NCBI GenBank assembly: GCA_035354195.1
Contig: DAOQAT010000006.1
Location: 12,842 to 76,841 of the forward strand
Source: Bacteroidales bacterium
GTDB lineage: Bacteria > Bacteroidota > Bacteroidia > Bacteroidales > CAIWKO01
Length of the DNA stretch: 64,000 nucleotides
Direction: 5' to 3'
Shown here: positions 7,195 through 44,588 of the stretch, piece by piece
Layout: the number at the start of each line of letters is the position of its first letter
Position numbering within the stretch: the stretch's first letter is position 1
The notes under the pieces: model-generated
Seen by the model: the letters and a program-made list of their open reading frames with translations, nothing else
Database searches by the model: none
Told to the model about the DNA's origin: nothing
Program-made: the position numbers and the translations under genes

Positions 7195-7230
7195 AATGTT
7201 GACTGGCATAATAATTGAATCCGGAGTTTT

Positions 7231-7238
7231 TATATTTG
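7231..7238 (+). promoter_or_regulatory. -7 promoter box TATATTTG
   Basis: Exact TAnnTTTG ending 8 nt before the ATG at 7246, which implies a very short or leaderless mRNA. Confidence 0.4.
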
Positions 7239-7245
7239 TCCACAC

Positions 7246-7833: not shown

Positions 7834-9258
7834 CTATTTTCCGCGGCCTTGCAATATGATAAGGGCGGTGTAAATCATGATCTTAAAATCAACAGCCAGC
7901 GTCATGTTTTCGATATACAAAACATCAAATTTTAAACGTTCAACCATTTGATCGACGGTTTCGGCATAACCGTATTTTACCTGTCCCCACGAAGTAATTC
8001 CCGGCTTTACTTTATGCAAAAGTTTATAGTGAGGCGCTTTCTGGACGATCTGGTTGATGTAAAACAGTCTTTCGGGCCGTGGGCCTACTATCGACATGTT
8101 TCCTTTCAACACATTATAAAATTGAGGGATCTCATCCAGGCGGACTTTTCGCATAAAACGGCCAAAAGGTGTTATGCGATGATCGTTCTTACTCGAAAGC
8201 TGTGGCCCTTCTTTTTCTGCATCCACATACATCGAACGGAATTTATACATGGTAAAAGGTTTGCCATGAAGGCCGATGCGTTCGTGCGAATAAAACACGG
8301 GGCCTTTTGATGATAATTTTACGCCCAAAGAAACCAGCAAATAAGCCGGTGATAGAATCAACATGAAAATCAGAGAACCAACAACGTCAATACCCCTTTT
8401 AATATAGCGTTGCCAGGCGGGCATGAGTTCCGGGGATATCTGTATCAATGGTGCATGAAAGATAGATGTCATTTTAACGCTTCCAAGCAGGAAGTCTTTC
8501 ATGTCGGGAATGATCTTGATAACCACGTGTGTATCTTCAAGCGAAGAAATGATCTGCTCCACAAAAGAATGTTCTTTTTTATCAATGGCAATAATTACTT
8601 CTTCAATTTCATATTCCGCGATGATGTTTTTTAGGTTTGTGTAATTACCCAAGTGTGGAAGATATTTCTCCATCGGATGTTGATCACCGTTATGCACATC
8701 AATAAATCCGACAAATTTATTACCGGATGATTTCCATTGGCTTTCAATTTCATTATAGATGGCCACGGCATTGCCGTTACTGCCAATCAGCAAGGTGTTA
8801 AAACCAATTATTTTATGGTGTATTTTGTATGCAGTCTGTGACGAAAATATTAAACGCCATGTAAACGTGAATGAAAAATGTAAAATAAAAATAACAAAGA
8901 AATACAGGTAATAATTTTTATATGAAACAACCTGATCATCCAGTATGAACAGGAAGAAAATGACGATCATCCCGATCAGCGAGATCAGGAATGTCTGCCC
9001 AAGTTCTTTTAATCGTGATTTTCTGAAGATTTTCTGATAAGTACCCGTGATAAAATATAAGACAAACCAGAACACCAAAATGAATGCAAGGCCGATATAC
9101 AGGTTTTTATCAGCAAAGATCTGATCAGGATTGTCAAATACTTTGGAGTTGACATGATATTTACGATAAATAAAAAATAATACCCAGGCTGCTCCTGCAG
9201 ATAATGCATCGGCAATAACATACTTGAGTACCTGAACTTTTTTATTCATTTCTGTCAT
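7834..9258 (-). CDS. polyprenyl-phosphate glycosyl-1-phosphate transferase (WbaP/EpsB-type bacterial sugar transferase)
   Basis: N-terminal TM helices. C-terminal domain with KGPVFYSHERIGLHGKPFTMYKFRSM, DEIPQFYNVLKGNMSIVGPRPE and KPGITSWGQV. Confidence 0.85.
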   Translation of the reverse strand: MTEMNKKVQVLKYVIADALSAGAAWVLFFIYRKYHVNSKVFDNPDQIFADKNLYIGLAFILVFWFVLYFITGTYQKIFRKSRLKELGQTFLISLIGMIVIFFLFILDDQVVSYKNYYLYFFVIFILHFSFTFTWRLIFSSQTAYKIHHKIIGFNTLLIGSNGNAVAIYNEIESQWKSSGNKFVGFIDVHNGDQHPMEKYLPHLGNYTNLKNIIAEYEIEEVIIAIDKKEHSFVEQIISSLEDTHVVIKIIPDMKDFLLGSVKMTSIFHAPLIQISPELMPAWQRYIKRGIDVVGSLIFMLILSPAYLLVSLGVKLSSKGPVFYSHERIGLHGKPFTMYKFRSMYVDAEKEGPQLSSKNDHRITPFGRFMRKVRLDEIPQFYNVLKGNMSIVGPRPERLFYINQIVQKAPHYKLLHKVKPGITSWGQVKYGYAETVDQMVERLKFDVLYIENMTLAVDFKIMIYTALIILQGRGK

Positions 9259-10197: not shown

Positions 10198-11178
10198 TTA
10201 ATCCGGGATATTGATTTTTTCAATGACTTTATAAGCGATATCCAGTGCTTTGTACCCATCAATAATGCTTACAGCCGTATCGGTATTATTTTCAATGGAA
10301 TTGAAAAATGTTTCAAGCTCGGTTTTAATAGCGTTGATGGGAACTATTTCAGGTTTTTCAAAAAATATCTGTTTTTTACCTTTGCCTTCTCCCAGGTCAA
10401 TGATCATATCAAGCGGACCCATACTGCCTTCATCAACAACATTTTTCAGGCGGATTATTTCAGTGTCTTTTTTGAAAAAATCAATGGCGATATAAGCATC
10501 GGGCTGAAAAATGCGGGTTTTGCGCATGTTCTTCATCGAAAGACGGCTTGCTGTGAGGTTGGCCACACAACCATTGTCAAATTCGAGGCGTGCATTGGCA
10601 ATATCTGGTGTGTCGCTCACAATGGCTACACCACTGGCGCTTATTTTCTTTATGTTTGATTTAACAATACTCAAAACAATGTCAATATCGTGAATCATCA
10701 GGTCAAGGATGACCGGGACATCCGTGCCGCGCGGATTGAAAAGCGCCAGGCGGTGCGTTTCAATGAACATCGGTTGCTGAATAAACGGAAAAGCCGCGAT
10801 ATAGGCGGGATTAAAACGTTCCACATGGCCGACCTGCACTTTAACACGTGCCTCATTCGAAATGGCAATAAGCTGTTTCGCTTCATCAAGGGTGGTAACC
10901 AAAGGCTTTTCAATAAATACATGCCGTGCCGATTTCATTGCTTTTGAAGCACAGTCAAAATGAGAAAGCGTAGGCGTTACAATGTCCACCACTTCAACGG
11001 ATGATATAAGATCATCAATGGAAGAAAAGGCTTTTATCCCTAATTCTTCTTCAACCTGTTTAACAACTAGTGGGTCCTGATCGTAAAAACCGCAAAGATT
11101 TATGTGCTCGATTTGTTTAAGGCAATTTATGTGGATCTTGCCCAGATGTCCAGCTCCTAATACTCCTACTGTTAACAT
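10198..11178 (-). CDS. Gfo/Idh/MocA family NAD(P)-dependent oxidoreductase
   Basis: Rossmann N-terminus MLTVGVLGAGHLGKIH and the FIEKPL motif. ATG at 11178 chosen; the 28-codon upstream extension in the ORF track lacks a plausible function. Confidence 0.85.
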   Translation of the reverse strand: MLTVGVLGAGHLGKIHINCLKQIEHINLCGFYDQDPLVVKQVEEELGIKAFSSIDDLISSVEVVDIVTPTLSHFDCASKAMKSARHVFIEKPLVTTLDEAKQLIAISNEARVKVQVGHVERFNPAYIAAFPFIQQPMFIETHRLALFNPRGTDVPVILDLMIHDIDIVLSIVKSNIKKISASGVAIVSDTPDIANARLEFDNGCVANLTASRLSMKNMRKTRIFQPDAYIAIDFFKKDTEIIRLKNVVDEGSMGPLDMIIDLGEGKGKKQIFFEKPEIVPINAIKTELETFFNSIENNTDTAVSIIDGYKALDIAYKVIEKINIPD

Positions 11179-20277: not shown

Positions 20278-22002
20278 ATGAAAAAGATTTTTCTTACAGC
20301 TGCTTTATGCTTTATTATATTCATAGTTGGAGCGCAGAATGTTGTTTCAAAATACCGGGTAACTTTTACGGATAAAAATAATTCGCCTTATTCCATCGAA
20401 AATCCTTCTCAATATTTATCTGAACGGGCCATCGAACGGCGCACACGTCAGAATATTCAGATACAACCCAATGATTTGCCGGTTAATTCCTGGTATATTG
20501 ACAGTGTCAGAAATACCGGAGCGGTGGTTTATACAGTTTCAAAATGGTTTAACTGCATTACGATCCGTACCACTGACACTGCTGTTTTGGCAAAAATATT
20601 GGCCTTTCCGTTTGTTACAGGTATAGATTCCCTGGCCGAAAGTACCGTGAAAAAAGGCGAAAAGCTGAAAAGGAGGGAAGATACGATGGAGGGAACTAAA
20701 AGCCTGGATGGATTATTTGCATTTAATGACATAAGTAGCACAAAGAATTTGGAAAATCAGGAATCCATGTTTGGTGCCGACAGGTTTGATTATGGAAAGG
20801 CTTATAACCAAGCGCATATGATTGGCACCGACTACCTTCACAATCAGAATTATTGCGGCCAGGGGATGGTCATTGCCATCCTGGATGCTGGCTTTTTTAA
20901 TGTCGATTCCATTGCTGTTTTTGATTCTCTTTGGCATAACAACCAGATTTTAGGTACTAAGGATTTTGTTCAGCCCGGCGGTGATGTTTTTAGCCGCAGT
21001 ACGCACGGCATGATGGTTTTGTCGATCATAGGCGGAAATGTCCCCGGTACTCTGGTGGGGACGGCTCCAAAAGCAAAGTTCTGGCTGTTGCGTTCTGAAG
21101 ATTCCGACAGTGAATATCCGGTTGAAGAAGACAATTGGGTTGCCGCAGCGGAATTTGCCGATAGCGTAGGCGTTGATGTGATAAATTCTTCGCTGGGCTA
21201 CACCGATTTTTTTAATCCTGACTGGGATCATTCCTATGCGCAAATGAACGGCAATAGTGCCAGATCATCAATTGGGGCTAAATTAGCTGCCAGCAAAGGT
21301 ATTCTTGTTTGTAACAGTGCCGGAAATTCCGGGAATGGCCCCTGGCATTATGTGGGTGCACCGGCAGATGCCGAAAATATTCTGACTGTGGGCGCTGTGG
21401 ATCAAAATGGTAAAATAGCTGCATTCAGCTCACGCGGGCCAACATCAGATGGGCGAATCAAGCCCTCAGTATGTGCCATCGGGCAGGGAACATTTGTATC
21501 ATCAGTTTCCGGGACTGCCATGTCAGGAAATGGAACTTCATTTTCTTCACCGGTAATGGCCGGATCAGTGGCTTGCTTATGGCAGGCAAACCGCTCCATG
21601 AGTAATCTTAAAATTATGGAGGCTGTTATTGCTTCTTCAAGCAGGTTTATGGATCCTGACTCCGATTATGGTTATGGTATTCCCAACATGGCAGCCGCCA
21701 ATATCATCCTGAAAGGGGGCGAAATTCATAATCTTGATAATGAAAACGCCATTACTGTTGCCCCAAATCCCTTCACAGATTCTTTTCAGATCGTTTTTTA
21801 TTCAAAAGATACTTCAGCTGTTGATGTCCAACTTGTGGATCTGTCAGGAAAAATTGTTTATGAAAGAACCAAAATTTCAAGAACACCGGGATGTAACTAT
21901 ATTAATGTGGCCCTTGCTGATGAATTGGCCAAAGGATATTACATGCTAAAAGTTGTATCTGAAACAAATACCTTTACCTCGAAAATAATGAAGATACAAT
22001 AG
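20278..22002 (+). CDS. S8 family serine peptidase with a T9SS type-A C-terminal sorting domain
   Basis: Catalytic triad contexts VIAILDAGF, STHGMMVLSIIGG and GNGTSFSSPVMAG. The C-terminus ITVAPNPFTDSFQIVF...VDLSGKIVYE...GYYMLKVVSETNTFTSKIMKIQ is Por_Secre_tail-like. Confidence 0.9.
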   Translation: MKKIFLTAALCFIIFIVGAQNVVSKYRVTFTDKNNSPYSIENPSQYLSERAIERRTRQNIQIQPNDLPVNSWYIDSVRNTGAVVYTVSKWFNCITIRTTDTAVLAKILAFPFVTGIDSLAESTVKKGEKLKRREDTMEGTKSLDGLFAFNDISSTKNLENQESMFGADRFDYGKAYNQAHMIGTDYLHNQNYCGQGMVIAILDAGFFNVDSIAVFDSLWHNNQILGTKDFVQPGGDVFSRSTHGMMVLSIIGGNVPGTLVGTAPKAKFWLLRSEDSDSEYPVEEDNWVAAAEFADSVGVDVINSSLGYTDFFNPDWDHSYAQMNGNSARSSIGAKLAASKGILVCNSAGNSGNGPWHYVGAPADAENILTVGAVDQNGKIAAFSSRGPTSDGRIKPSVCAIGQGTFVSSVSGTAMSGNGTSFSSPVMAGSVACLWQANRSMSNLKIMEAVIASSSRFMDPDSDYGYGIPNMAAANIILKGGEIHNLDNENAITVAPNPFTDSFQIVFYSKDTSAVDVQLVDLSGKIVYERTKISRTPGCNYINVALADELAKGYYMLKVVSETNTFTSKIMKIQ

Positions 22003-22018
22003 GGTTAGATGATTTTTT

Positions 22019-22270
22019 TTATTTTCTTTTGTTACCGTAGCCGGGAACGCCCCTTGTGTTTCGTTTGTTTTTAATAATGTAATTTTTATTGATGGGGATA
22101 ATGTTCTTTTTTAATTTTTTCTGATAAGGAGAATGATATCTTTTTACCATGGCTGTTCGCCTGCGTTTAATCATTCGTTTATAACGGTAGTGCCTGTTGC
22201 ACGAATCAAATGCAATTTCTGCAATAAAAACCGCCAGTAATAATATGTACCATTTTTTTAAGTACTTCAT
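22019..22270 (-). CDS. possible small basic membrane-anchored protein (83 aa), doubtful
   Basis: ORF track only. One N-terminal hydrophobic helix followed by a Lys/Arg-rich tail. No recognisable family. Confidence 0.3.
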   Translation of the reverse strand: MKYLKKWYILLLAVFIAEIAFDSCNRHYRYKRMIKRRRTAMVKRYHSPYQKKLKKNIIPINKNYIIKNKRNTRGVPGYGNKRK

Positions 22271-22572
22271 AACTCGTTATTATCTTTTTTTCGAGAACCC
22301 TTTTACAGTATAAATATCAGACAGTAAAACTAATAATATTTTTTAACAAACAAATAAAAAAAATATCGACTTTATTTTAATATCGTGTTATACTGCTTAT
22401 CTCAAATTAATGTTACAAAAGAAAAACATTTTTTTTTACAAAAAACAGAAAAATGAAAAATAATAATAACATTTTTATTAAAAAGTATATGAAATCACAT
22501 AAAATCATTACAAATAACTTTTTTCATTCGATAAACAGTTGAAAAAATATTTTTCGTTTTCATTTTTTTTTA

Positions 22573-22580
22573 TATTTTTG
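22573..22580 (+). promoter_or_regulatory. -7 promoter box TATTTTTG
   Basis: Matches TAnnTTTG, 20 nt upstream of the ATG at 22600, at the end of a 330-nt very AT-rich spacer. Confidence 0.4.
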
Positions 22581-22599
22581 AACAAAACTAAATACCATT

Positions 22600-24831
22600 A
22601 TGATGAAAAAAATTTCATTTTTTGTTTTAATACTGTCCATGACAGTCATTAATATTCATTCTGTTTTCGGGCAGTTGAGCGGTAGTTTGGTCATTGGTGG
22701 CGCACCATCTGATTATTTAACATTTTCTGATGCTGTTTCTTCTCTAAATACCGTGGGTGTAGCCGGGAATGTTGTATTTGATGTAAAACCCGGTACTTAT
22801 ACCGAACAATTTTCAATAAATCAGATCACAGGTGCCGGTCAATCAGCTACTATTACGTTTCAACCTCAAAATGGGGACAGTACTTCCGTTATTCTTCAGT
22901 TCCCGTCTTCTTCCGGGTCAGCAAACAATTATACAGTACAACTGAATGGCGCCGATTATATTACATTTGACAAGTTGACGATTAAAAGATCCGACACCCT
23001 GAAATATTGCAAAGTTGTTGATTTTGCCGGAGGGGCCAGAAAGAATACATTTTCGAATTGTATTATTGAAGGTAACGCCAATCCTGGTAATACGCAACTT
23101 ATCAGTACTGTCATTGGCTCTAACAATACAGGGTTTAAGAGCCGCAATACCTTTCAGAACAACATCATCAGAAATGGTTCTTATGGGCTTTATTTTGTTG
23201 GACAGAACAGCACTACACCCGATTCTAATATTCTAGTCAGGAATAATAAATTTATCAATCAAACCAATCAGGGAATTCATATAGAATCCCATCGTTTTGC
23301 CTTTATCGAAGCCAATGAGGTGGTAAATAATACCACCAATAATTCTTATAATGCAATTTTTCTGCGTTATTCAAACGACACCATGCGCATTGTACAAAAC
23401 AAAATTGCGTTAACCGTTGGTTACGGGATATACATCTGGAACTGCAACGAAGCAATAACAGCTGATGCACTGATTGCGAACAATTTTATTTCTGTTGGCG
23501 GATCTTCAAATGCCATTGGAATTTATATTTTGAGCAGTAAACGCCTGCACATATTGCATAACAGTATTAATATTTATAATACCGTTACCATTCAGGGATC
23601 ATGTATTCATATCAACGGGAGTTCTACGGCAAACCTGTATATAAAAAATAATATTTTTGCTAATGCGGGAACAGGACAGGGGTATACCTATTATGTTGCC
23701 GGCACCACGAACACCCCAATTGCTGAAGCTAATTATAACGACTTGTTTGTTAACAGCGGAGTGTGGATTGGATATTGGAAAACCGCCGGTGTAACATCAC
23801 TTGCCAATTGGCGTACCACATCTTCTCAGGACGCTAATTCCTTTATTGCAAACCCCAATTATTTTTCTGACAGCGACCTGCATACGGTCAGTGGCGGTGT
23901 TAATGGAATGGGGACACCTAATTTATCCCCATTTGTTATTACTACTGATATTGATAACAATATGAGAGATGCCTCCACCCCTGATGTGGGGGCTGATGAA
24001 TTCAATGTCGGCGATCTGGGGATAACTAAAATTGAATTACCTGCGGCAGGAGTTTATTGCAAAAACACCGCTTTCAATGTAAAAGTTTTTATTACCAATC
24101 ATGACGTTACCGGCTATAATGGCAATGTCCCTGTTTACTATAAAGTTGGCGGCTCAGCTACTGTCAATGAAACAGCCATGAACCTTACTATTCCTGCTGG
24201 TGATTCTGTGTCTTATACTTTTGCAACGGACGAAATTGTCCCTACAGCGGGGAATTTTAAACTTTTGGCCGGCACAGACCTGGAAGCAGATAACAATATA
24301 AATAATGACACCATGAGCAGGATGGTTGAGGTAATTGAGCCAGCGGTGGCAAATTTTACTTATGTTCCCGGCATTTATGAGGTGGTTTTTACTAATACCT
24401 CAACTAATGCAGTAAGTTATTCCTGGGATTTTGGAGATGGAAATAATTCAGTTGAACAAAACCCGACCCATACTTATACCGGCGCCGGTAACTACATGGT
24501 GGTACTTGAAAGTTCAAATATATGCTCAAGCGATACAGCCTCTCAACTAATCAGTCTTTCAGGTGTCAATGAACTTAGTGAGGTTTACGGAATTAATTGG
24601 TGGCCTAATCCTGCAACCAATTATTTGAATTTCGAATTTGCAAATTGCAAAGCAAATTTAAGAGCCATAACCTTATTCAATAGTTCTGGAGAATTGATTT
24701 TGAGGAAATTTTTAGAAAGTAATAATACCTTGCAAACCATTGATATTTCATTCATGAATAACGGAATGTATGTTATAATGTTCGAATTTGGAAATAAAAT
24801 TTTATATCAAAAAGTATTGATAAACAAATAA
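22600..24831 (+). CDS. secreted right-handed parallel beta-helix repeat protein with a CARDB-like domain, a PKD domain and a T9SS type-A CTD
   Basis: Recurrent beta-helix rungs (FSNCIIEGNA, FQNNIIRNGSYGLYF, VRNNKFINQTNQGIHI, IANNFISVGG, ILHNSINIYN, IKNNIFANAG). PKD signature WDFGDGNNSVEQNPTHTYTGAGNYMVV. CTD is WWPNPATNYLNFEF...GMYVIMFEFGNKILYQKVLINK. Confidence 0.8.
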   Translation: MMKKISFFVLILSMTVINIHSVFGQLSGSLVIGGAPSDYLTFSDAVSSLNTVGVAGNVVFDVKPGTYTEQFSINQITGAGQSATITFQPQNGDSTSVILQFPSSSGSANNYTVQLNGADYITFDKLTIKRSDTLKYCKVVDFAGGARKNTFSNCIIEGNANPGNTQLISTVIGSNNTGFKSRNTFQNNIIRNGSYGLYFVGQNSTTPDSNILVRNNKFINQTNQGIHIESHRFAFIEANEVVNNTTNNSYNAIFLRYSNDTMRIVQNKIALTVGYGIYIWNCNEAITADALIANNFISVGGSSNAIGIYILSSKRLHILHNSINIYNTVTIQGSCIHINGSSTANLYIKNNIFANAGTGQGYTYYVAGTTNTPIAEANYNDLFVNSGVWIGYWKTAGVTSLANWRTTSSQDANSFIANPNYFSDSDLHTVSGGVNGMGTPNLSPFVITTDIDNNMRDASTPDVGADEFNVGDLGITKIELPAAGVYCKNTAFNVKVFITNHDVTGYNGNVPVYYKVGGSATVNETAMNLTIPAGDSVSYTFATDEIVPTAGNFKLLAGTDLEADNNINNDTMSRMVEVIEPAVANFTYVPGIYEVVFTNTSTNAVSYSWDFGDGNNSVEQNPTHTYTGAGNYMVVLESSNICSSDTASQLISLSGVNELSEVYGINWWPNPATNYLNFEFANCKANLRAITLFNSSGELILRKFLESNNTLQTIDISFMNNGMYVIMFEFGNKILYQKVLINK

Positions 24832-25964: not shown

Positions 25965-25972
25965 TACTTTTG
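25965..25972 (+). promoter_or_regulatory. -7 promoter box TACTTTTG driving the riboswitch leader
   Basis: Matches TAnnTTTG a few nt upstream of the first riboswitch helix. Confidence 0.5.
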
Positions 25973-25975
25973 TTT

Positions 25976-26150
25976 CCGAAATGGTGTCCGTAGAAATTAA
26001 TTTTACGGTAAAGGGAATCAGGTGAAATGCCTGAACAGTACCCGCTGCTGTAGGTCCTATTAAACTTGTAGGCACTCTTTGTCACTGTTCGCTCACCGGC
26101 GAATGGGAAGACGCCTGAAAGGGGACAAGTCAGAAAACCTGCCGTTTCAT
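25976..26150 (+). ncRNA. cobalamin (B12) riboswitch
   Basis: Conserved core AAGGGAATCAGGTGAAATGCCTGAACAGTACCCGCTGCTGTAGG, then GTCACTG...GGGAAGACGCC, and the B12 box AAGTCAGAAAACCTGCC (26128-26144). Closing helix CGAAATGG / CCGTTTC. Lies upstream of a TonB-dependent receptor. Confidence 0.85.
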
Positions 26151-26258
26151 GAACATATTATTTAAGGCTTTCGGGGAAAAAAGCTTAAATGGATAACATT
26201 ATAAAATTATCTGTTTTTTTCTCAAAACGCTTTTAAATAATACAAAAAGATTTGTATT

Positions 26259-28178
26259 GTGAAAAAAGGTGCCCTGATTTATGTTTTCTTTCTTTGGCTT
26301 GGCGTCGGCGCTGCAGCCCAGAAAAACCTTACCGATACCATTCTTCCTTTAACAGGTGTGGAAGTGAAAACAGACCGTTTTTCAAATACCCTGGGCGGTG
26401 TAAAAATTGAGGAGATCGATACGGTTTCCATGAGAACTTTTTCGGAGGGTAATGTAAGCCAGCTCCTGTTACAAAACTCCTCTGTGTATATTAAATCAAA
26501 TGGTATCACAGGATTAAGTTCTGTATCAATAAGAGGTACAGGAACCTCACAAACAGCCGTTTTATGGAACGGATTCAATATTCAGAACCCTATGAATGGC
26601 GGCATGGATATTTCGCTGATCCCGGTAAATTTTATGAATAAAATTTCCATCCAGTACAATGGCATGGCGGCATTATATGGCGGAGGGGCCATGGGTGGTG
26701 CCATTCACCTCACCAACGAACTTGAGTACGACAAAGGCTTGGATGTTTCCATCGGAGGATCATACGGCAGTTTCGGAAATTATTCGGTCAATATGAAGTT
26801 AGGCCTGAGCAGGAAGAAAACGTCTTTCATGGTAAAAGCGTTTTACCAGGAAGGTAAAAATGATTTCACATTTATTAATGATGCCAGCCTGGGCTCACCA
26901 AAGGTCCGTCAGACTAATGCTGAAATGGTCAGCTATGGTGTAATGCATGATAAAGCCTATAAAATAAATGATAACAACCTGCTGACTTTTCGTTTGTGGA
27001 TACAGGACAGCAAAAGGCAGATCCCGCCATTAATGACACAGGAATTCAGCAGCGCCTGCCAGCGTGATGAGTTTTTCCGGCCATCGCTGGAGTGGGTCAA
27101 CAAAGGGAAAAAGTATAAATTATTTGTACGGACCGCTGTGCTTATCGACAATTATAAGTATGCCGATCCCGACAAACAGATAAATTCTTCAAGCGGAACA
27201 ACAGCATCGGTTTCCGAAAGTGAAATTTATTTCAAATTATTCCCTTATCACACCATGAATGTGGGCGTTCACTATAAATATACATCCGGGTATTGTGATT
27301 ATTATATTCAGAAACAATCACAACAGGAAATTTCTGCTTTCGTCTCCTACACGGCAACAGGGAAAAGCGATAAATGGAAACTGAACCTTGGTTTGCGTGA
27401 AGAATACAGTAACAACAGCTTTGTCCCCGTTTTACCTTCAGCGGCAATGGATATTAAGTTGTATAAGGATATGTTTTTATATGTCAACTTCAGCAGAAAT
27501 TACAGGATACCCACACTTAACGATTTATACTGGAACCCGGGAGGCAACCCTGACCTGAAACCTGAAAGCGGCTTTGCAGAGGAATTAGGGATCAGGTACC
27601 AGAAAACCTGGGATAAATTCACGCTCAAATACATGGTTTCCGGCTTCAACAATAATACGCGGAACTGGATCATCTGGCTGCCGGAATCGTCTTATTGGTC
27701 ACCTGAGAATATCCAGGCTGTGTGGAGCAGAGGCGCAGAATTAAATGTGAATTTAGCTGCTGATGTAAAAAAACTCGGTTTAATTTTTTCAGGAAAGGCG
27801 GCCTATGTGAAAGCTACTGTTGAAAAAAGCAATAACGAAAGCGCCCTTGGCCATCAGTTGATTTATACGCCCGAATGTATTGCAAATGGAAGTATAAATA
27901 TAATTTACAAAACCTTTAATTTTAATATCAACGTGGAATACAATTCCAGATGCTACACTTCCCCGGATAACCTGGATTTTATTGCCCACTATATGCTTGG
28001 AAATTTTTATGCTTCCAAGGATTTTTATTTTAAAAATTTCGGGTTTAATATTTTTCTGCAGGTCCATAATTTCTGGAATCAAAAATATCAAGCCATTGCC
28101 TGGCAGGCGATGCCTGGCATAAATTTCAAAACAGGAGTCCAAATAAATTTTAAACATTCTTTAAAGAAAAAAACATGA
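26259..28178 (+). CDS. btuB: TonB-dependent receptor, BtuB-like (riboswitch-controlled)
   Basis: GTG start. Signal peptide VKKGALIYVFFLWLGVGAAAQ. Plug-domain motifs (SVSIRGTGTSQTAVLWNG). Barrel motif YRIPTLNDLYWNPGGNPDLKPE. Sits directly downstream of the cobalamin riboswitch. Confidence 0.8.
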   Translation: MKKGALIYVFFLWLGVGAAAQKNLTDTILPLTGVEVKTDRFSNTLGGVKIEEIDTVSMRTFSEGNVSQLLLQNSSVYIKSNGITGLSSVSIRGTGTSQTAVLWNGFNIQNPMNGGMDISLIPVNFMNKISIQYNGMAALYGGGAMGGAIHLTNELEYDKGLDVSIGGSYGSFGNYSVNMKLGLSRKKTSFMVKAFYQEGKNDFTFINDASLGSPKVRQTNAEMVSYGVMHDKAYKINDNNLLTFRLWIQDSKRQIPPLMTQEFSSACQRDEFFRPSLEWVNKGKKYKLFVRTAVLIDNYKYADPDKQINSSSGTTASVSESEIYFKLFPYHTMNVGVHYKYTSGYCDYYIQKQSQQEISAFVSYTATGKSDKWKLNLGLREEYSNNSFVPVLPSAAMDIKLYKDMFLYVNFSRNYRIPTLNDLYWNPGGNPDLKPESGFAEELGIRYQKTWDKFTLKYMVSGFNNNTRNWIIWLPESSYWSPENIQAVWSRGAELNVNLAADVKKLGLIFSGKAAYVKATVEKSNNESALGHQLIYTPECIANGSINIIYKTFNFNINVEYNSRCYTSPDNLDFIAHYMLGNFYASKDFYFKNFGFNIFLQVHNFWNQKYQAIAWQAMPGINFKTGVQINFKHSLKKKT

Positions 28179-29158
28179 AAAAATTTTTTAGTTTTATCAG
28201 CGCATGTGCCGTTATAAGTATTCTTATTTCAGGCAACCAGTTAAAAGCACAGACCATTTCTGACTTTGAGGACCTTACCTTGCCGGCAGACAGTTTCTGG
28301 AACGGATCGGATTTTACCGGCGGTTTTAACGATGGGAACGCTTTTTTTACCAATACATTTCTTTATGATTCGCTTTACGGCGGATACTGGGCCAGCGGAT
28401 TTGCCTATTCCAATATGAAAGATTCAACGAATGGAAGCTATACCAACCTTTATAGTGCAAGGGCTGGTGTGGGGTATAACGACTCTCCGAATTACGGCGT
28501 GGGCCAGAATTATGCGATGCTGAAATTAACCGGAAATGCTGCGGGAAAGGTTGTGGATGGGTTTTATGTCAGCAATACTACGTATGCTGCCCTCAGCATG
28601 CAAAATGGTGACGCGTTTGCCAAGAAATTTGGTGGCGTTTCCGGAGATGATCCCGACTGGTTTAAGTTAAGTATTACCGGTTATCTCGGCGGCAGTCCTG
28701 TTGGAGATACGGTGCATTTTTACCTCGCTGATTACAGATTTGCCGACAATTCACAGGATTATATTTTGAAAACCTGGCAATGGGTGAATCTTAGGCCATT
28801 AGATAACATTGACAGCCTTATCTTCCTTTTAAGCTCTTCGGATACGGGCCAGTTTGGTATGAATACACCGCCTTTCTTTTGCCTTGATAATTTTGAAACA
28901 CTTGATTCCCCTGCAAGTATTGACAAAATAGAGGCTAATAATTTTTCAGTTTATCCGAATCCGGCAGATGGCTACATTTATATTGAACCGGTTAATAACA
29001 ATATCATTCATAAGCTGTTTATTCGCGATATTTGCGGGAGAACTCTGATGAACCTTGAAAATGTTGATCCTAAAAATTACCTTGATATAAGTAATTTTGC
29101 AAAAGGGACGTATATTCTTACCATAGATGGTACTTCACAGAAACTGATTGTCAGGTAA
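28175..29158 (+). CDS. DUF4465-like secreted protein with a T9SS type-A CTD
   Basis: The start overlaps the receptor stop (ATGA). Signal peptide. TISDFEDLTLPADSFWNGSD...YWASGFAYSNMKDSTN resembles the DUF4465 family that co-occurs with btuB in Bacteroidota. CTD is FSVYPNPADGYIYIEP...GTYILTIDGTSQKLIVR. Confidence 0.6.
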   Translation: MKKFFSFISACAVISILISGNQLKAQTISDFEDLTLPADSFWNGSDFTGGFNDGNAFFTNTFLYDSLYGGYWASGFAYSNMKDSTNGSYTNLYSARAGVGYNDSPNYGVGQNYAMLKLTGNAAGKVVDGFYVSNTTYAALSMQNGDAFAKKFGGVSGDDPDWFKLSITGYLGGSPVGDTVHFYLADYRFADNSQDYILKTWQWVNLRPLDNIDSLIFLLSSSDTGQFGMNTPPFFCLDNFETLDSPASIDKIEANNFSVYPNPADGYIYIEPVNNNIIHKLFIRDICGRTLMNLENVDPKNYLDISNFAKGTYILTIDGTSQKLIVR

Positions 29159-29159
29159 T

Positions 29160-30143
29160 ATGAAAAAATATATTCTGGTATTTTTCACATCGTGTCTTTT
29201 CCCTATTGCAGTTTTCGCACAGTTTCCTCCTGCCGCAGGGCAGGCGGGCAGTACAGCCATTTCTAAGGACAGCGCCATTTTTACGTCCTGGGCCACCCGC
29301 TGTGAAATTCACCGGGGTTGGCAGAATATCGCCGATACTTCTCTTGGAAAAGCCGATGTGGGTGATAGTTCGATGGCATTAGGCATGGCCGGAACCAATG
29401 GCGTCGTGAGCCTTGGAGATGCCGGTTTCGCGGTGCTCACATTTGACAGGCCTGTTGAAAACGGCGAATCATGGGATTTTGCCGTTTTTGAGAATTCCTT
29501 TTCCGACCTGTTTCTTGAACTGGCCTTTGTGGAGGTGAGTTCCGACGGCATACATTATTTTCGGTTCCCATCAACTTCTTTAACAGATACGATGGTTCAG
29601 GTTGGCGCATTTGATGAACTTGATCCGACGAAAATCAATAACCTGGCCGGGAAATACCGGGCCTTGTATGGCACTCCCTTTGACTTGCAGGAGCTTGATG
29701 GAATCCCGGGACTTGATATCAATAATATTACCCATGTGAAAATAATTGATGTTGTTGGCTCGCTTGATTCAAACTTTGTTTCGTACGACGCTTATAACCA
29801 TAAAATCAATGATCCCTGGCCGACACCTTTTAATTCTTCCGGCTTTGACCTGGATGCAGTTGGGGTCATTCATCAGGCGCCTGCTGCTGTTCCTGAAGAT
29901 ATGTTTGTAACGAATATTTCGGTCTATCCCAACCCTGCCAATGGAATACTGCACATTAGGTTTATGAATGAAAATCAATATTCAGTGATTTCCTTAACCA
30001 CAATTAAGGGCGAAATAATAAAAGAAATCCGTCGTTTCGGGTTGGATGAAACGATTGACTTGTCAGGCGTTCCGGCAGGTATTTATATTTTATCTGTAAA
30101 AGATAATCAAACGGTTTACTGCAAAAAAATAATTAAATACTGA
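29160..30143 (+). CDS. secreted protein of unknown function with a T9SS type-A CTD
   Basis: ATG lies 1 nt after the previous stop. Signal peptide MKKYILVFFTSCLFPIAVFAQ. The core WDFAVFENSF...ELAFVEVSSDGIHYFRFP is not assigned to a family. CTD is ISVYPNPANGILHIRF...GIYILSVKDNQTVYCKKIIKY. Confidence 0.6.
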   Translation: MKKYILVFFTSCLFPIAVFAQFPPAAGQAGSTAISKDSAIFTSWATRCEIHRGWQNIADTSLGKADVGDSSMALGMAGTNGVVSLGDAGFAVLTFDRPVENGESWDFAVFENSFSDLFLELAFVEVSSDGIHYFRFPSTSLTDTMVQVGAFDELDPTKINNLAGKYRALYGTPFDLQELDGIPGLDINNITHVKIIDVVGSLDSNFVSYDAYNHKINDPWPTPFNSSGFDLDAVGVIHQAPAAVPEDMFVTNISVYPNPANGILHIRFMNENQYSVISLTTIKGEIIKEIRRFGLDETIDLSGVPAGIYILSVKDNQTVYCKKIIKY

Positions 30144-30144
30144 T

Positions 30145-31185
30145 ATGAAAAAGTATCCTTTTATTTTACTTCTCGCTGCTTTTCTGATGTTCCTTGCCGG
30201 TTCATGCAAAAAAGAAACACCACCGGATGACGATAATACTGATATCACCACCAACCATGGTGTCTTCATTGTGAATGAAGGTAATTTTCAGTGGAGTAAT
30301 GCCTCCGTTACTTTTTATGATTTTGCCAACGGCAATTATGTCGAAAATATTTTCCAGCAAGTCAATAACAGGCCGCTGGGCGATGTGGCCCAATCGATCT
30401 GTATTTATAATGGGTTGGCATACATTGTCGTGAACAATTCAAACAAGATTGAGGTGGTAAACCTGAGCAATTTTGCATCCACCGCCGTGATCAGCGGGCT
30501 TGTTTCCCCGCGTTATTTTTTGCCGGTGAGTGCAGCGAAGGCCTATGTCACCGACCTGTACAGCAACAGTATCAGCATTATTGATTTAAATACCAATGCA
30601 AAAACAGGTGAAATAATGTGCAAAGGAAGTACTGAAGAAATGGTGTTGCACGACCAAACTGTTTTTGTAACGAATACCAGAAAAGACAAGATTTATCTGA
30701 TCAATACGATGACGGATGAGATTACCGACAGCATTCAGGTGGGTTTTGCCTCCAATTCGCTCCAATTGGATAAAAATGGAAAATTATGGGTGATGTGTGC
30801 CGGGGATCAGACAAACAGTATTAATGCATCACTTTACCAAGTGGATGTTCAGCAAAAGGTTGTTGAACAAAGCTTCCAGCTTGGTACTCCCCTGAATATC
30901 TGGGATAAAATGAGAATGAACACAACCAAAGACACCATTTATTATTTGTGTAACGGCGTTTATCGCATGCCTGTTGCTGATACTGTTTTGCCCGATGAGA
31001 CATTTATTCAACAAGGAAGCAGCTTGTTTCACGGGCTGGCGGTCAATCCGTTAAATAACAACATTTTTGTAGCCGACGCCGTTGATTACGTTCAGAAGGG
31101 CAGGGTTAATTATTACGATGCAAATGGGACGTTGCTGGGAACCATCAATACAGGGATAATACCCGTAGATTTTTATTTTTATTAA
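30145..31185 (+). CDS. beta-propeller lipoprotein (YncE/DUF5074-like, candidate BtuG-like corrinoid-binding protein)
   Basis: ATG lies 1 nt after the previous stop. Lipobox FLAGSC. GVFIVNEGNFQWSNASVTFYD...LGDVAQSI...YIVVNNSNKIEVV is the pattern of YncE-like propellers found in Bacteroidota B12 loci. Confidence 0.6.
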   Translation: MKKYPFILLLAAFLMFLAGSCKKETPPDDDNTDITTNHGVFIVNEGNFQWSNASVTFYDFANGNYVENIFQQVNNRPLGDVAQSICIYNGLAYIVVNNSNKIEVVNLSNFASTAVISGLVSPRYFLPVSAAKAYVTDLYSNSISIIDLNTNAKTGEIMCKGSTEEMVLHDQTVFVTNTRKDKIYLINTMTDEITDSIQVGFASNSLQLDKNGKLWVMCAGDQTNSINASLYQVDVQQKVVEQSFQLGTPLNIWDKMRMNTTKDTIYYLCNGVYRMPVADTVLPDETFIQQGSSLFHGLAVNPLNNNIFVADAVDYVQKGRVNYYDANGTLLGTINTGIIPVDFYFY

Positions 31186-31195
31186 GAAACTGCTT

Positions 31196-31834
31196 CTAAA
31201 GCCTGTCCAGATATACAATTCCATTCAGGTGGTCGATCTCATGCTGAAAAATAACAGCAGTGAAATTACTTCCTGAATAACCTTCAATAAGCTCGGTATT
31301 ATGAGTCCCGTCGGGCCTGTCATAATCTACCACAACAGCAGAATAGCGATGGCTTGTTCCGGACATGCCGGGAACAGACAAACATCCATCACCGACAAAA
31401 CTGATGGCCTTATTGGAATAGAGGATGATTTTCGGATTCAGGTAACATTCAAAAGGCATCCCGGTCTTGTCGCGGCGCTGAACCCAGATGATGTTACGGT
31501 TAATTCCCACCTGCGGGGCGGCAATCCCGACGCCATCCTCGGCAAGTACCGTTACCTTCATCCGTGCGGTTAGCCGGTTCAGGGTAGCGGTATCGTTAAA
31601 ATTAACATCAATGGATTGTTTCCGTAAAATGAGTGAGTCAGCATGGATAAAATAGTTCATCACGTACATGGCAGAATCACTGCTGTTGTTGTAAATGAGC
31701 GCTTTTTCCGCATCGGTAAATGCCAGTTCATCAACCGGTGTATTATCTTCAGGCTCGTCTTTTTTGCATTGGCCGAAAACCAGCATGGTGCTGAACAGCA
31801 GAATAATCAAATAAAACCTGGAATCTATTTTCAT
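31196..31834 (-). CDS. peptide deformylase-like protein with a lipoprotein-type signal peptide and an N-terminal extension
   Basis: PDF motifs GVGIAAPQVG, DGCLSVPG (E to D in motif 2) and HEIDHLNG. N-terminus MKIDSRFYLIILLFSTMLVFGQCKKD plus an extra ~60 aa. Confidence 0.75.
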   Translation of the reverse strand: MKIDSRFYLIILLFSTMLVFGQCKKDEPEDNTPVDELAFTDAEKALIYNNSSDSAMYVMNYFIHADSLILRKQSIDVNFNDTATLNRLTARMKVTVLAEDGVGIAAPQVGINRNIIWVQRRDKTGMPFECYLNPKIILYSNKAISFVGDGCLSVPGMSGTSHRYSAVVVDYDRPDGTHNTELIEGYSGSNFTAVIFQHEIDHLNGIVYLDRL

Positions 31835-41654: not shown

Positions 41655-42695
41655 TTAGTATAAGCTTTTGTTGGCTTTGGTAAACAAGGGCGTGATGTAC
41701 CTCAGGGAGACTTCCAGTCCTCCTGCGCTCTTGCTTGCTGCAGCCAGCTTCGATGTGTTGACATCATAACTTAATGAAAGCAGGAAATTCCGCCATTCTA
41801 ACTGTCCGGAAACGATGAATGCATCTTTCAGACGATAGTACACACCTAATGCAACTGCCGTTTCTGATATAAAGCTCGTATATTTTGACGGATCGTTAAG
41901 CCTGTATCTGAATAAGGACCCAAAGATCACTTCGTTGGACGGGCCCTGCATAAACCATGCAGCAGTCGGTACCAAGGCAAAGTTGGAATTTGAAAAACCA
42001 ATAAAAGAATTTGCATGTACGGTTAATTTCATTTTCATCTTGTTGGATGAAATATCAGAAAATGTTTGCTTAGGCCTGTTCAAATGCATAAGTGAAACTC
42101 CCACACTTACTTTTTTAGAATCATTGGCAGATAAAGTAGTGGCGTTGGAATTATAGGACCAAAGCAATCCGGCTCCTATGTCTCCATAAAATAAACTATT
42201 AAAAGACATAGTTTCGTTTGTAGGTAATGACGGATTATAACCGTCGGTATAGCTGGGATCGTATTGACTGTCCCAATGCATGGTACCCATGTTTACTCTT
42301 TTTTGGGCAAAGCCGCCCTGTATAGCTGCGGTAAGTACATTAAACCTGTTTAGAGGTAAATGATAGGCCACTGAAATATTTACCATGGTTTGCCCCATTT
42401 TATTGTCACCCGCCTGATCATTGAAAAGCTGAAACCCAAGGCCAAGAACACCTCCATTGAGCTTTCCTTTTAATATGCCTGCATCATATGAGAGCCCATA
42501 CGTAGTATATGAACGGGAAACACTTTTCCATTGGCTTTTGTAATTCGCAATAATCCGGTGATCGGCATTAAATGCTCCAGCCAGTGCAGGGTTTAACGAT
42601 AAGGGGGCGTAGTTAAACTGTGAAAAATGTATGTCCTGTCCAATCACAAAATAAGAACTTAAAATAAGTCCGGTAAGTATTAATATTTTTTTCAT
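41655..42695 (-). CDS. PorP/SprF family type IX secretion system membrane protein (copy 2)
   Basis: QDIHFSQFNYAPLSLNPALAGAF...HRIIANYKSQW, ending GGLEVSLRY. This is the classic PorP/SprF N-terminal signature. Confidence 0.85.
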   Translation of the reverse strand: MKKILILTGLILSSYFVIGQDIHFSQFNYAPLSLNPALAGAFNADHRIIANYKSQWKSVSRSYTTYGLSYDAGILKGKLNGGVLGLGFQLFNDQAGDNKMGQTMVNISVAYHLPLNRFNVLTAAIQGGFAQKRVNMGTMHWDSQYDPSYTDGYNPSLPTNETMSFNSLFYGDIGAGLLWSYNSNATTLSANDSKKVSVGVSLMHLNRPKQTFSDISSNKMKMKLTVHANSFIGFSNSNFALVPTAAWFMQGPSNEVIFGSLFRYRLNDPSKYTSFISETAVALGVYYRLKDAFIVSGQLEWRNFLLSLSYDVNTSKLAAASKSAGGLEVSLRYITPLFTKANKSLY

Positions 42696-42715
42696 TTTTA
42701 CAAGTGATTGTTATA

Positions 42716-43771
42716 TTAATAAAGGTTTTTGTTACCTGCCGTAGCTACTGTCGGAGAATATCTTAATGACACTTCAAAGCCCCCCGATCCATTACTTACA
42801 TTAGAAAATTTAGAGATGTTGATATCATAGCTTAATCCGAGTAAAAAGTTTTTCCAGTCAAGCTGTGCCATTAAAACCACGGCATCACCAACCCTATAAA
42901 AGCCGCCAATGCTGATAAAAGTTTCCGGATTGAATTTGGTGTAATAAGAGCTATTACCCAACCTGTATGAGAAAAGGCTGCCCAATAATATATCATAGGC
43001 CTCTCCCTGTATGAAAGCAACTCCGGACGGCTGGAGTGAAAACTTACTGCCCTTAAAACCGATGGAAGAATTGACATGGAATGCGAATTTCATCCGTTCC
43101 CTAAAAGTGTTATCGTTTCCGATTGGATAATAGTAATAAGTCTGCCTTGGGCGGTTGATATGAAAAATGGCTAATCCTGCCGTAACTTTTTTTGTTTCCG
43201 GAGTATTAACAGTTGACTGCTTTGAATTGTAATGCCAAAGTATACCTGCGGAAAAATCACCATAATCAATATTTACAAAAGGCGAGGATTCATTAGTTGG
43301 GAGTGATGGGTTGTAGCCACCGGGGGAAAACGGATCGTACTGGCTCCCGTATATCATCTTTGAAACCGTTGTCCTGCGCTGTCCCCAACCGGTTTGAAGC
43401 CCCACCGCAAGCATATTATTGGCGTTAATACCCAGATGATAAGCCGCTGTCAGCTTTACTTCTGTGACCCCTAAATTTACATCGCCGGACTGGTCGTTGA
43501 ACACCTGGAGCCCGACAGCTAAAAAGCTGGATTTGAGTTTTTTCTTTAAAAAACCAACATCATACGATAAACCATAGGTCATGTATGCTTTTGTGACCAA
43601 TTTCCATTGGCTGCGGTAATTCGCAATGATCCTATGGTTACCCGCAAAAGCTCCGGTTAGCGCCGGGTTTGTCTGCATGGGTGTATTGTTGAACTGCGAA
43701 AAATGCATGTCCTGGGCCGAAACAGTATAAGAAATAACAATAATGATAAGTGTATGTATAATTTTTTTCAT
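42716..43771 (-). CDS. PorP/SprF family type IX secretion system membrane protein (copy 1)
   Basis: QDMHFSQFNNTPMQTNPALTGAF...HRIIANYRSQW, ending GGFEVSLRY. A tandem paralog of the downstream gene. Confidence 0.85.
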   Translation of the reverse strand: MKKIIHTLIIIVISYTVSAQDMHFSQFNNTPMQTNPALTGAFAGNHRIIANYRSQWKLVTKAYMTYGLSYDVGFLKKKLKSSFLAVGLQVFNDQSGDVNLGVTEVKLTAAYHLGINANNMLAVGLQTGWGQRRTTVSKMIYGSQYDPFSPGGYNPSLPTNESSPFVNIDYGDFSAGILWHYNSKQSTVNTPETKKVTAGLAIFHINRPRQTYYYYPIGNDNTFRERMKFAFHVNSSIGFKGSKFSLQPSGVAFIQGEAYDILLGSLFSYRLGNSSYYTKFNPETFISIGGFYRVGDAVVLMAQLDWKNFLLGLSYDINISKFSNVSNGSGGFEVSLRYSPTVATAGNKNLY

Positions 43772-43781
43772 AAATGCTGAT

Positions 43782-44435
43782 TTATCGGATTAATGTGAAA
43801 TTCCCCTTTATCCTGTCCACTTCACCATCTCTGTAAATGACATCAATGTAATAAATATAGGTTCCCTGTTCAGCCTTCTGGCCATTAATTTCTCCGTTCC
43901 ATTCTGATTGTCCGTCGGTGGTCTCAAATACTTTTTTTCCCCAACGGTCGTAAATATACATGTGAAAATCTTTCAAATTGGTGCTTCTTACAATCAGGAC
44001 GTCATTGGCCCCGTCTTCGTTGGGAGTGAAAATATTAGGTATAAAAACATAGTTCTCAGCACAAACTTCTTCAACAGTGATATAATCGGTTATAACAAGC
44101 GTGTCATTACCGCTGGCATTTCCTACGATCAAGGTCACATCATAGTTACCCGGATTATTGTATAAAATACTTGGGGGCGTGTTTAACGTATCCGTCTCAG
44201 GAGTCCCGCCTTCAAATATCCAAATGCACGAGTTGGTGTTGTGACCGGTTGATAAATTTGTAAAAGTCACAAATTGTCCCGGGCAAATGACCGTATCGCT
44301 GGTTGCGAAATTTGCAACCGGTAAAACTTTTGTGTTTATCTTAGGGCCTTCATTGCCTTGTTTTTCATTCTGGGCAAAAATACCCCGGCTGAAAAATAAT
44401 ACGAAAACCAGCTGTAACAGTAATACTTTTTTCAT
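43782..44435 (-). CDS. small PKD-domain protein with a T9SS type-B (gliding-motility-associated) C-terminal domain
   Basis: Signal peptide MKKVLLLQLVFVLFFSRGIFAQ. One PKD-like domain (ANFATSDTVICPGQFVTFTNLS...GNYDVTLIV). CTD is IPNIFTPNEDGANDVL...YDRWGKKVFE...WNGEINGQKAEQGTYIYYI...GNFTLIR. Start at 44435 preferred over 44477. Confidence 0.85.
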   Translation of the reverse strand: MKKVLLLQLVFVLFFSRGIFAQNEKQGNEGPKINTKVLPVANFATSDTVICPGQFVTFTNLSTGHNTNSCIWIFEGGTPETDTLNTPPSILYNNPGNYDVTLIVGNASGNDTLVITDYITVEEVCAENYVFIPNIFTPNEDGANDVLIVRSTNLKDFHMYIYDRWGKKVFETTDGQSEWNGEINGQKAEQGTYIYYIDVIYRDGEVDRIKGNFTLIR

Positions 44436-44588
44436 ACAAATAGTAGTAAATTTCTTCCTGATAATTTTCTGAATCAAAGATAGAAAAAAATATATTAGTT
44501 ACACAAACATTATTGTATCAATTTTTTTAAATGATATTTAAATACATAAGTCTGAATGGTTGAACGAACAGCGTGTGCATTTTTTTTA

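Follow-up and report, generated by a model that had tools for sequence, protein, structure and literature searches.

Introduction

Most bacteria have to scavenge B12, a keystone micronutrient, and the surface capture proteins BtuG, BtuH and BtuJ have, to our knowledge, so far been studied almost solely in gut Bacteroides, as lipoproteins. In Btu loci 1 and 2 of Bacteroides thetaiotaomicron, an upstream cobalamin riboswitch precedes BtuB with adjacent BtuG, DUF4465/BtuJ and a BtuH-type domain in one operon. An extracellular relay leading from BtuJ through BtuH and BtuG to BtuB has been proposed for this organism, whose accessory proteins BtuH, BtuJ, BtuK and BtuL are lipoproteins (PMC13616437, PMC10404256, PMC8941943). 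Here, we analyze a four-gene operon behind a cobalamin riboswitch in an uncultured Bacteroidales bacterium. It lies in a 64,000-nucleotide (nt) stretch of contig DAOQAT010000006.1 (GCA_035354195.1; positions 12,842-76,841, forward strand), which we call the window and whose positions serve as coordinates throughout. The operon had been picked out in an earlier reading of the window, referred to below as the original prediction.

The locus shares with Btu loci 1 and 2 the upstream riboswitch, the joint presence of BtuB, BtuG, DUF4465/BtuJ and BtuH-type proteins in one operon, and the predicted logic of extracellular capture followed by hand-off. With E. coli btuB it has in common a TonB-dependent B12 receptor under the control of a cobalamin riboswitch, whereas surface capture proteins are missing from E. 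coli and its BtuB is of a different subfamily. Unlike the B. thetaiotaomicron loci, the operon is a compact set of four genes without BtuK, BtuL or BtuFCD, its BtuH-type protein is shorter and strongly diverged, and its two capture proteins carry a signal peptidase I (SPI)-type signal and a type-A C-terminal domain (CTD) of the type IX secretion system (T9SS). For B12 uptake in Bacteroidota, an operon of this kind is nothing unusual; what is new is the T9SS-deployed variant and a BtuH-like protein family. We consider it probable that the locus is a riboswitch-repressed outer-membrane corrinoid acquisition operon of a T9SS-bearing member of the Bacteroidales, equivalent to the B. thetaiotaomicron relay.

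Results

Composition of the operon

The cobalamin riboswitch is the sole Rfam match in the window. It covers the full RF00174 model (1-189 of 189) with a score to be read against a gathering score of 31.5 bits (Table 1), and its B12 box, AGTCAGAAAACCTGCCG at 26128-26144, aligns with the model consensus AGCCAGGAGACCuGCCg. The scan thereby bears out the well-formed riboswitch and B12 box described in the original prediction.

The first gene contains Plug (PF07715) and TonB barrel (PF00593) domains, and among solved structures it comes closest to the Bacteroides BtuB chains in BtuBG complexes (8p98_A, 8p97_A and 8bmx_C; E ~1e-54). Its best-scoring NCBIfam family is TonB-B12, yet below the equivalog cut-off, and it fails the BtuB equivalogs TIGR01779 (80.1 versus 599.7 bits) and NF007926 (55.3 versus 836 bits); these models are tuned to proteobacterial BtuB. 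On these matches, gene 1 is assigned as a Bacteroides-type BtuB. Gene 4 matches DUF5074 (PF16819; E 2.4e-25, 89.8 bits versus 27.2) and the propeller chains of the same PDB entries (8bmx_D, E 8.6e-63; 8p97_B, E 3.7e-56), which hold BtuBG complexes (PMC10404256). Its signal, …FLAGSC followed by KKETPPDDD, comprises a lipobox and then an acidic stretch, the sole lipobox among genes 2-4, and we assign the predicted product as a BtuG propeller lipoprotein.

Gene 2 is a full-length DUF4465 jelly-roll (PF14717; E 1.5e-48, 165.9 bits versus 25), like BtuJ1, BtuJ2 and the other DUF4465 jelly-rolls (9FCT, 9I2L and 9HMU), to which a T9SS CTD is appended (PF18962, E 1e-9). Among DUF4465 structures in the PDB it matches 9qpm and 9fct (E ~4e-21) and 9hmu (E 1.5e-17), 9fct being BtuJ1 (PMC13398666). 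Its identity to B. thetaiotaomicron BtuJ1 is 26% over 234 amino acids (aa) spanning the whole jelly-roll (E 9e-21), about as close as BtuJ1 is to BtuJ2 (27%; bioRxiv 10.1101/2025.07.01.662609). DUF4465 is the BtuJ family of corrinoid binders with nM-to-pM affinities (PMC13616437; PMC13398666), and B12 binding has been found for eight distantly related members (PMC13398666). We therefore predict that gene 2 encodes a BtuJ-family, B12-binding jelly-roll, taking the binding of this particular protein from its family. The original prediction had listed DUF4465 next to BtuH among the families with which to compare the accessory proteins; a tentative grouping of the two needs correcting, since DUF4465 is BtuJ (PMC13616437, PMC13398666).

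Table 1. Features of the riboswitch-controlled operon (window positions).
Feature	Position	Strand	Description
Cobalamin riboswitch aptamer (RF00174)	25965..26160	+	cmscan, 97.2 bits, E 5.3e-23
Candidate Bacteroidota -7 promoter box TACTTTTG	25965..25972	+	fits TAnnTTTG, read in sequence
Leader / expression platform, ~100 nt	26161..26258	+	conserved GCUUUCGGGGAAAAARGC element and U-run
btuB (gene 1)	26259..28178	+	predicted TonB-dependent corrinoid transporter, 639 aa, GTG start
btuJ-like gene 2	28175..29158	+	DUF4465 jelly-roll aa 69-240; T9SS type-A CTD aa 259-325; SPI signal
btuH-like gene 3	29160..30143	+	327 aa; 225-aa N-domain 29220-29894; T9SS type-A CTD 29922-30134
btuG (gene 4)	30145..31185	+	predicted seven-bladed beta-propeller surface lipoprotein; lipobox ...LAGSC, then acidic stretch

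Gene 3 as a remote BtuH homolog

Sequence searches of Pfam, NCBIfam and the PDB left the N-domain of gene 3 without a match and recognized only the T9SS CTD of the protein; phmmer and an hmmsearch with a shallow profile (alignment A1, 38 close homologs) likewise returned nothing but CTD matches from the PDB. Pfam and NCBIfam hold no model for BtuH or for the gene-3 family, which is why the original prediction had been unable to place the middle protein in any family. Even so, the protein does have a relative, as profile alignment, structure search and a profile search of the PDB all lead to BtuH.

As reference we used the ~270-aa C-terminal B12-binding domain of BtuH from BT1488, BT1490 and BT1956. 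The query was obtained by searching human-gut metagenome contigs for the B. thetaiotaomicron operon with a 27-nt pattern from the published BT1488 cloning primer (supplement, PMC12751083), and the recovered BtuH sequences were verified by their PDB matches, 7BIZ (E 8e-62) and 8BLW_B. Aligning a deep gene-3 profile (A3, 150 sequences including a deltaproteobacterial clade) with 41 BtuH sequences (A4) in hhalign gave Prob 97.3% and E 1.8e-11 over 62 columns, and a relaxed maximum-accuracy (MAC) threshold extended the match to 159 columns at Prob 96.3%. The top match of the A3 profile among 177,635 PDB sequences was 8blw_B, residues 422-474, the BtuH domain of BtuGH (E 0.018). Conversely, when BtuH1 and BtuH2 served as tblastn queries on the window and 84 loci, all matches fell in the core of gene-3 homologs; with no canonical BtuH in the searched loci, gene 3 takes the BtuH slot. 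An AlphaFold2 model built on A3 (pLDDT 94.8, pTM 0.93) found two chains of 7BIZ (BtuH2) as the Foldseek matches with the highest query-normalized TM-scores in the PDB (0.47 and 0.44, prob 0.99). A first model of full-length gene 3, built on the 38 close homologs, had reached a pLDDT of 63.7 and was discarded.

The two families meet in a homologous core with an N-x-F...E motif, which gene 3 shares with both BtuH2 (BT1956, 7BIZ) and BtuH1/BtuGH, likewise encoded in btuB operons. We compared the BtuH contact residues Q333, F334, N399, F401, E406, Y475, H476, Y510, D522, W577, S582 and E584. With the BtuH2 numbering verified, the N92-x-F94-(5)-E100 motif conserved in gene 3 matches N399-x-F401-(4)-E406 of BtuH2, from which come two ligands of the Na/Ca site for the nucleotide-loop phosphate as well as a Phe that stacks on the corrin (PMC13616437). 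The nearly invariant D135 is a tentative counterpart of D522. Two further correspondences, S582/E584 with D210/D212 (GFDLDAVGV) and Q333/F334 with a PAAGQ motif, are plausible matches by eye that gained no support when the termini were aligned separately. The gene 3 domain is also smaller than BtuH (~225 versus ~270 aa), and where BtuH carries an insertion it has conserved motifs of its own (NNLAGKYR..YGTPFDL and DPWPTPF).

Several results weigh against homology with BtuH or against a shared function. The firm alignment is limited to a core of ~60 residues; the N- and C-terminal segments of gene 3, aligned alone in hhalign, carried no independent BtuH signal, and BLASTP against BtuH1 recovered a 34-aa core alone, with a marginal E of 0.003. 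No PDB match of the model reached E <= 1e-3 in Foldseek (E-values around 7e-3, TM-scores <0.5), and carbohydrate-binding beta-sandwiches of the CBM32, CBM6 and F5/8-C types matched with similar E-values at TM-scores of 0.3-0.4. The BtuH2 residues Y475, H476 and Y510 sit in a 60-100-aa insertion that gene 3 lacks; with this corrin-contact region missing, any corrinoid binding by gene 3 must follow a different mode.

The Foldseek result and the CTD-only matches of the shallow profile would both suit a generic beta-sandwich resemblance, in which gene 3 is an unrelated T9SS cargo gene that happens to sit in the operon. Such a coincidence is very improbable in view of the hhalign E-value, the reciprocal specificity of the searches, in which BtuH queries matched gene-3 genes only (84 loci) and the family profile ranked a BtuH domain first in the PDB, and the synteny and riboswitch linkage conserved across two phyla (see below). 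We conclude from these profile and structure comparisons that the gene 3 N-domain is, as far as predicted, a remote, shortened and divergent homolog of the BtuH B12-binding domain, and from this we infer that it binds corrinoids. Gene 3 was also considered as BtuL or BtuK and rejected, as BtuL is a receptor-L-domain protein and BtuK a PKD-plus-propeller protein.

The gene-3 family core (window 29220-29894; P0142 and P0361) additionally matches, weakly and below cut-off, NF033170, the LIC_13355 family lipoprotein of Leptospira (best E 3.6e-7), which hints at a wider superfamily that takes in BtuH.

Distribution and genomic context of the gene-3 family

The N-domain of gene 3 is represented by 1853 clusters (50% identity) at E <= 1e-3 and by 813 at E <= 1e-30, and relatives are encoded in at least 575 species-level genomes, compared with the 37 gut Bacteroidota reported for BtuH. 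The commonest architecture is a single domain followed by a CTD; we also found tandem domains with a CTD, PKD-domain-CTD proteins, very long multidomain proteins, and fusions with DUF4465 in both orders (DUF4465-domain-CTD and domain-DUF4465-CTD). BtuH likewise stands on its own, follows PKD domains or is joined to a further Btu domain, but it is lipid-anchored, whereas the gene-3 family is anchored by a T9SS CTD, or by PEP-CTERM or dockerin modules in other phyla. A divergent clade outside Bacteroidota, in the Deltaproteobacteria/Desulfobacteraceae, is annotated as PEP-CTERM proteins, and in five family members (P0271, P0280, P0285, P0286 and P0303) a type I dockerin (PF00404) stands in place of the T9SS or PEP-CTERM anchor.

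We surveyed 80 related species-level loci by tblastn and with a covariance model whose six underlying aptamers, that of the window and five from related loci, had been confirmed by Rfam. Culturable carriers suggested by the loci are Chitinophaga, Chryseobacterium, Owenweeksia and strain UKL13-3. A same-strand cobalamin riboswitch lay upstream of the gene-3 homolog in 60 of the 80, BtuB and/or BtuG adjoined it in 58, and BtuG followed it in 55. The window order, riboswitch-BtuB-DUF4465-gene3-BtuG, was found at 32 loci, riboswitch-BtuB-gene3-BtuG at 11, and riboswitch-gene3-BtuB-BtuG at four. At ten loci, the riboswitch preceded a lone gene-3 homolog by 62-374 nt (the aptamer of one, L053, is Rfam-confirmed). 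No riboswitch was found at 20, eight of which are contigs cut inside the operon. Far from being unlinked to btuB and riboswitches elsewhere, an outcome that would have spoken against the original prediction, homologs of this accessory protein recur beside both, and the earlier suggestion that all four proteins are probably one corrinoid-capture machine gains support from the recurring gene order and from the riboswitch linkage of gene 3.

Beyond Bacteroidota, two deltaproteobacterial loci (L081, 4924-8876; L083, 4816-8795) show the order riboswitch-DUF4465-TonB receptor-gene3 (PEP-CTERM) without BtuG, with riboswitch scores of 127.6 and 81.2 bits. Judged by gene content, they look like a Btu-like capture system outside Bacteroidota. 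Given this recurrence in many loci and in Deltaproteobacteria, the association with B12 is independent of the window's operon and spans two phyla, and the strong riboswitch linkage makes the gene-3 family a well-supported candidate corrinoid binder.

At a minority of loci, the family adjoins genes for nucleotide-loop assembly. In three lone gene-3 loci without a riboswitch (L036, L037 and L047), the homolog sits in DUF6580-thioesterase(4HBT)-gene3-CobT-CobS-CobC clusters, and in two others (L014 and L016) DUF6580 and cobTSC lie downstream of BtuG. As a variant of the corrinoid-binding proposal, the family could be specialized for incomplete corrinoids or loop precursors (cobinamide, alpha-ribazole or lower ligands) and feed salvage. 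These clusters would fit such a role, as would the fact that gene 3 shares with BtuH the nucleotide-loop/metal-site region and not the corrin-contact insertion. Yet most loci, the window included, have no cobTSC nearby, and what the BtuH metal site holds is the loop phosphate, a group missing from cobinamide (PMC13616437); we give this specialization a slim chance.

DUF6580 (PF20221) is a small membrane protein encoded either right after BtuG or right before gene-3 or DUF4465-gene-3 fusion genes, and beside cobT-cobS-cobC (L014, 10038-10595; L016, 4849-5406; L047, 6695-7273; L129, 737-1303; also L036 and L037). It is absent from the window, has no sequence relative in the PDB and was not mentioned in the literature searched. 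Its placement makes it a candidate inner-membrane partner, and it may be the missing corrinoid transporter. At another locus (L021), the Btu operon is followed, at 10305-10497, by a second cobalamin riboswitch, which precedes genes that include 4HBT and CobT homologs.

Type IX secretion signals

The original prediction had cited lipoproteins of the BtuG type as the surface accessory proteins of Bacteroides, and for genes 2 and 3 this picture must be corrected: both combine an SPI-type signal with a T9SS type-A CTD, and a lipobox is present in BtuG alone. Against the T9SS CTD model TIGR04183 (cut-off 23 bits), the two proteins score 34.4 and 46 bits. BtuJ is a surface lipoprotein with a signal peptidase II (SPII) and export signal; gene 2 has instead an SPI signal (…LKA before QT) and no lipobox, and presumably reaches the surface by T9SS rather than through a lipid anchor. 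The gene 3 signal (…VFA before QF) is of the same type, again without a lipobox. From these signals we infer that both proteins are exported by T9SS and then surface-attached or released.

The window also holds T9SS genes, namely two PorP/SprF proteins and several further CTD cargo proteins. They lie in a T9SS-related cluster at 20278-24831 and 41658-44477 that includes an S8 peptidase and a beta-helix/PKD protein, each with a CTD, and two tandem PorP/SprF genes adjoining a PKD protein with a type-B (CHU_C) CTD. Literature searches on marine BtuG, on PEP-CTERM with cobalamin riboswitches and on DUF6580 gave nothing relevant, and no T9SS- or PEP-CTERM-anchored Btu protein is described in the literature searched.

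Gln is the predicted first residue of both mature cargo proteins (window 28250 and 29220), and in gene 3 this residue, Gln21, is invariant across the 38-sequence alignment A1. Such a first residue would fit the pyroglutamate that secreted proteins of Bacteroidota tend to carry at their N-terminus.

Leader, promoter box and gene boundaries

The promoter box that had been placed before the riboswitch fits TAnnTTTG. Of 57 related riboswitch loci, 33 have such a motif within -3 to +1 nt of the corresponding site, and 21 have it exactly at that site, which marks the box as a conserved element rather than a chance match. Fixed flanks around variable middle bases are the pattern expected of a promoter element, and we regard it as a candidate promoter. 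The distance from the aptamer to the start codon, ~100 nt, is maintained in seven close loci, as is the element given in Table 1, and RNAalifold predicts for these loci a hairpin between the A-rich leader element and the U-run, with 27 pairs, five of them with compensatory changes, and a weak energy. A sigma-70 promoter/terminator scan is uninformative for Bacteroidota; no convincing intrinsic terminator was seen 3' of the aptamer.

Gene 1 overlaps gene 2 in an ATGA at 28175-28178 (-4 nt), and the following junctions read TAA-T-ATG at 29156-29162 and TGA-T-ATG at 30141-30147 (+1 nt each), exactly as had been read in the original prediction; from this spacing, the four genes are predicted to be translationally coupled. 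The GTG start proposed for the receptor also agrees with our data, as it yields a good signal peptide and homologs align from residue 1. For gene 3, the program's list of open reading frames (ORFs) gives a TTG at 29148, whereas homologs point to the ATG at 29160. The earlier statement that the operon lacks btuFCD can be extended, as none was found among 34 window ORFs scanned either. In an independent metagenome, a copy of the operon (L128) is 99% identical with unchanged gene order.

Discussion

In the mechanism that we propose, low intracellular cobamide would leave the leader unliganded, and the four coupled genes would then be expressed from the TAnnTTTG promoter. BtuB would insert into the outer membrane and be capped by the lipoprotein BtuG, while the DUF4465 and gene-3 proteins would cross the inner membrane by Sec and be exported via their CTDs through T9SS, to be surface-attached or released. 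There, they would bind corrinoids and pass them to BtuG-BtuB for TonB-driven import, with the inner-membrane transport step being encoded elsewhere than in the operon. Gene 3 would retain the BtuH metal-site motif for the nucleotide-loop phosphate and use its own motifs in place of the BtuH insertion. The order of the relay, the surface location and the B12-dependent repression are deduced from analogy with B. thetaiotaomicron and from sequence features, and are to be read as predictions.

Three further points count against parts of this proposal. Twelve of the 80 surveyed gene-3 homologs have neither a riboswitch nor Btu neighbors within 8 kb. Btu operons are known to include accessory proteins that do not bind corrinoids, BtuK2 and BtuL (PMC13616437). 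Finally, the expression platform in the leader may act on either transcription or translation.

The existence of such non-binding proteins opens a second role for gene 3, as a member of the B12 regulon that acts as an accessory or scaffold in the manner of BtuK2 or BtuL of B. thetaiotaomicron; it could be, for example, a calcium-dependent, lectin-like beta-sandwich tethering BtuJ-like proteins or the whole complex to the surface or matrix. The missing insertion with Y475, H476 and Y510, the carbohydrate-binding modules at similar Foldseek E-values and the diversity of surface anchors in the family (T9SS CTD, PEP-CTERM and dockerin) would all be compatible with a tether. A scaffold for proteins encoded elsewhere is, however, hard to reconcile with the ten loci in which gene 3 is the sole gene behind a riboswitch, and the family's fusions with DUF4465 and its tandem duplications are of a kind common among ligand-binding modules. 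Moreover, the BtuH phosphate-binding metal-site motif is conserved in gene 3, and the highest query-normalized TM-score belongs to BtuH2, not to a carbohydrate-binding module. Taken together, we hold a scaffold role to be unlikely, although its chance is appreciable.

Returning to corrinoid capture, the locus suggests that environmental, T9SS-bearing Bacteroidota have the same Btu relay, with two of its capture modules rerouted via type IX secretion. On balance, we lean slightly toward the view that the gene-3 family is a large, cross-phylum and so far unannotated family of extracellular corrinoid-binding domains, a compact 'mini-BtuH' that is more widespread than canonical BtuH and often the sole gene behind a riboswitch. 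Its deployment would vary with lineage: Bacteroidota would use a T9SS CTD, Deltaproteobacteria PEP-CTERM and other groups dockerin. If true, BtuH-type B12 scavenging would be a general environmental strategy and not a speciality of gut Bacteroides, it might involve a binding mode or ligand preference of its own, and thousands of hypothetical proteins annotated as 'T9SS type A sorting domain-containing' or 'PEP-CTERM' would gain a name. The compact 225-aa domain of gene 3 offers an experimentally tractable lead, and DUF6580 a possible inner-membrane partner.

Further observations

A peptide deformylase gene (PF01327; window 31196-31834, reverse strand) converges on the operon, beginning 10 nt past its last stop codon. 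The encoded protein is unusual in being extended at its N-terminus by ~60 aa, which include a lipoprotein-like signal (…VFGQC), and the arrangement is kept in L128.

Among the surveyed contigs, a Bacteroidia metagenome-assembled genome (MAG) carries the Rfam DUF805b motif (RF02914, 39.3 bits) upstream of its Btu locus (L012, 2719-2751). Typical Bacteroidota Btu operons were met in MAGs labelled Woesearchaeota, Competibacteraceae and Bifidobacteriaceae (L015, L017 and L043), probably through binning errors. In a gut metagenome (L102, 6998-8988), two overlapping ORFs (6998-7609 and 7561-8988) take the place of an intact B. thetaiotaomicron BtuGH gene, BT1490, reflecting either an assembly frameshift or a strain pseudogene.

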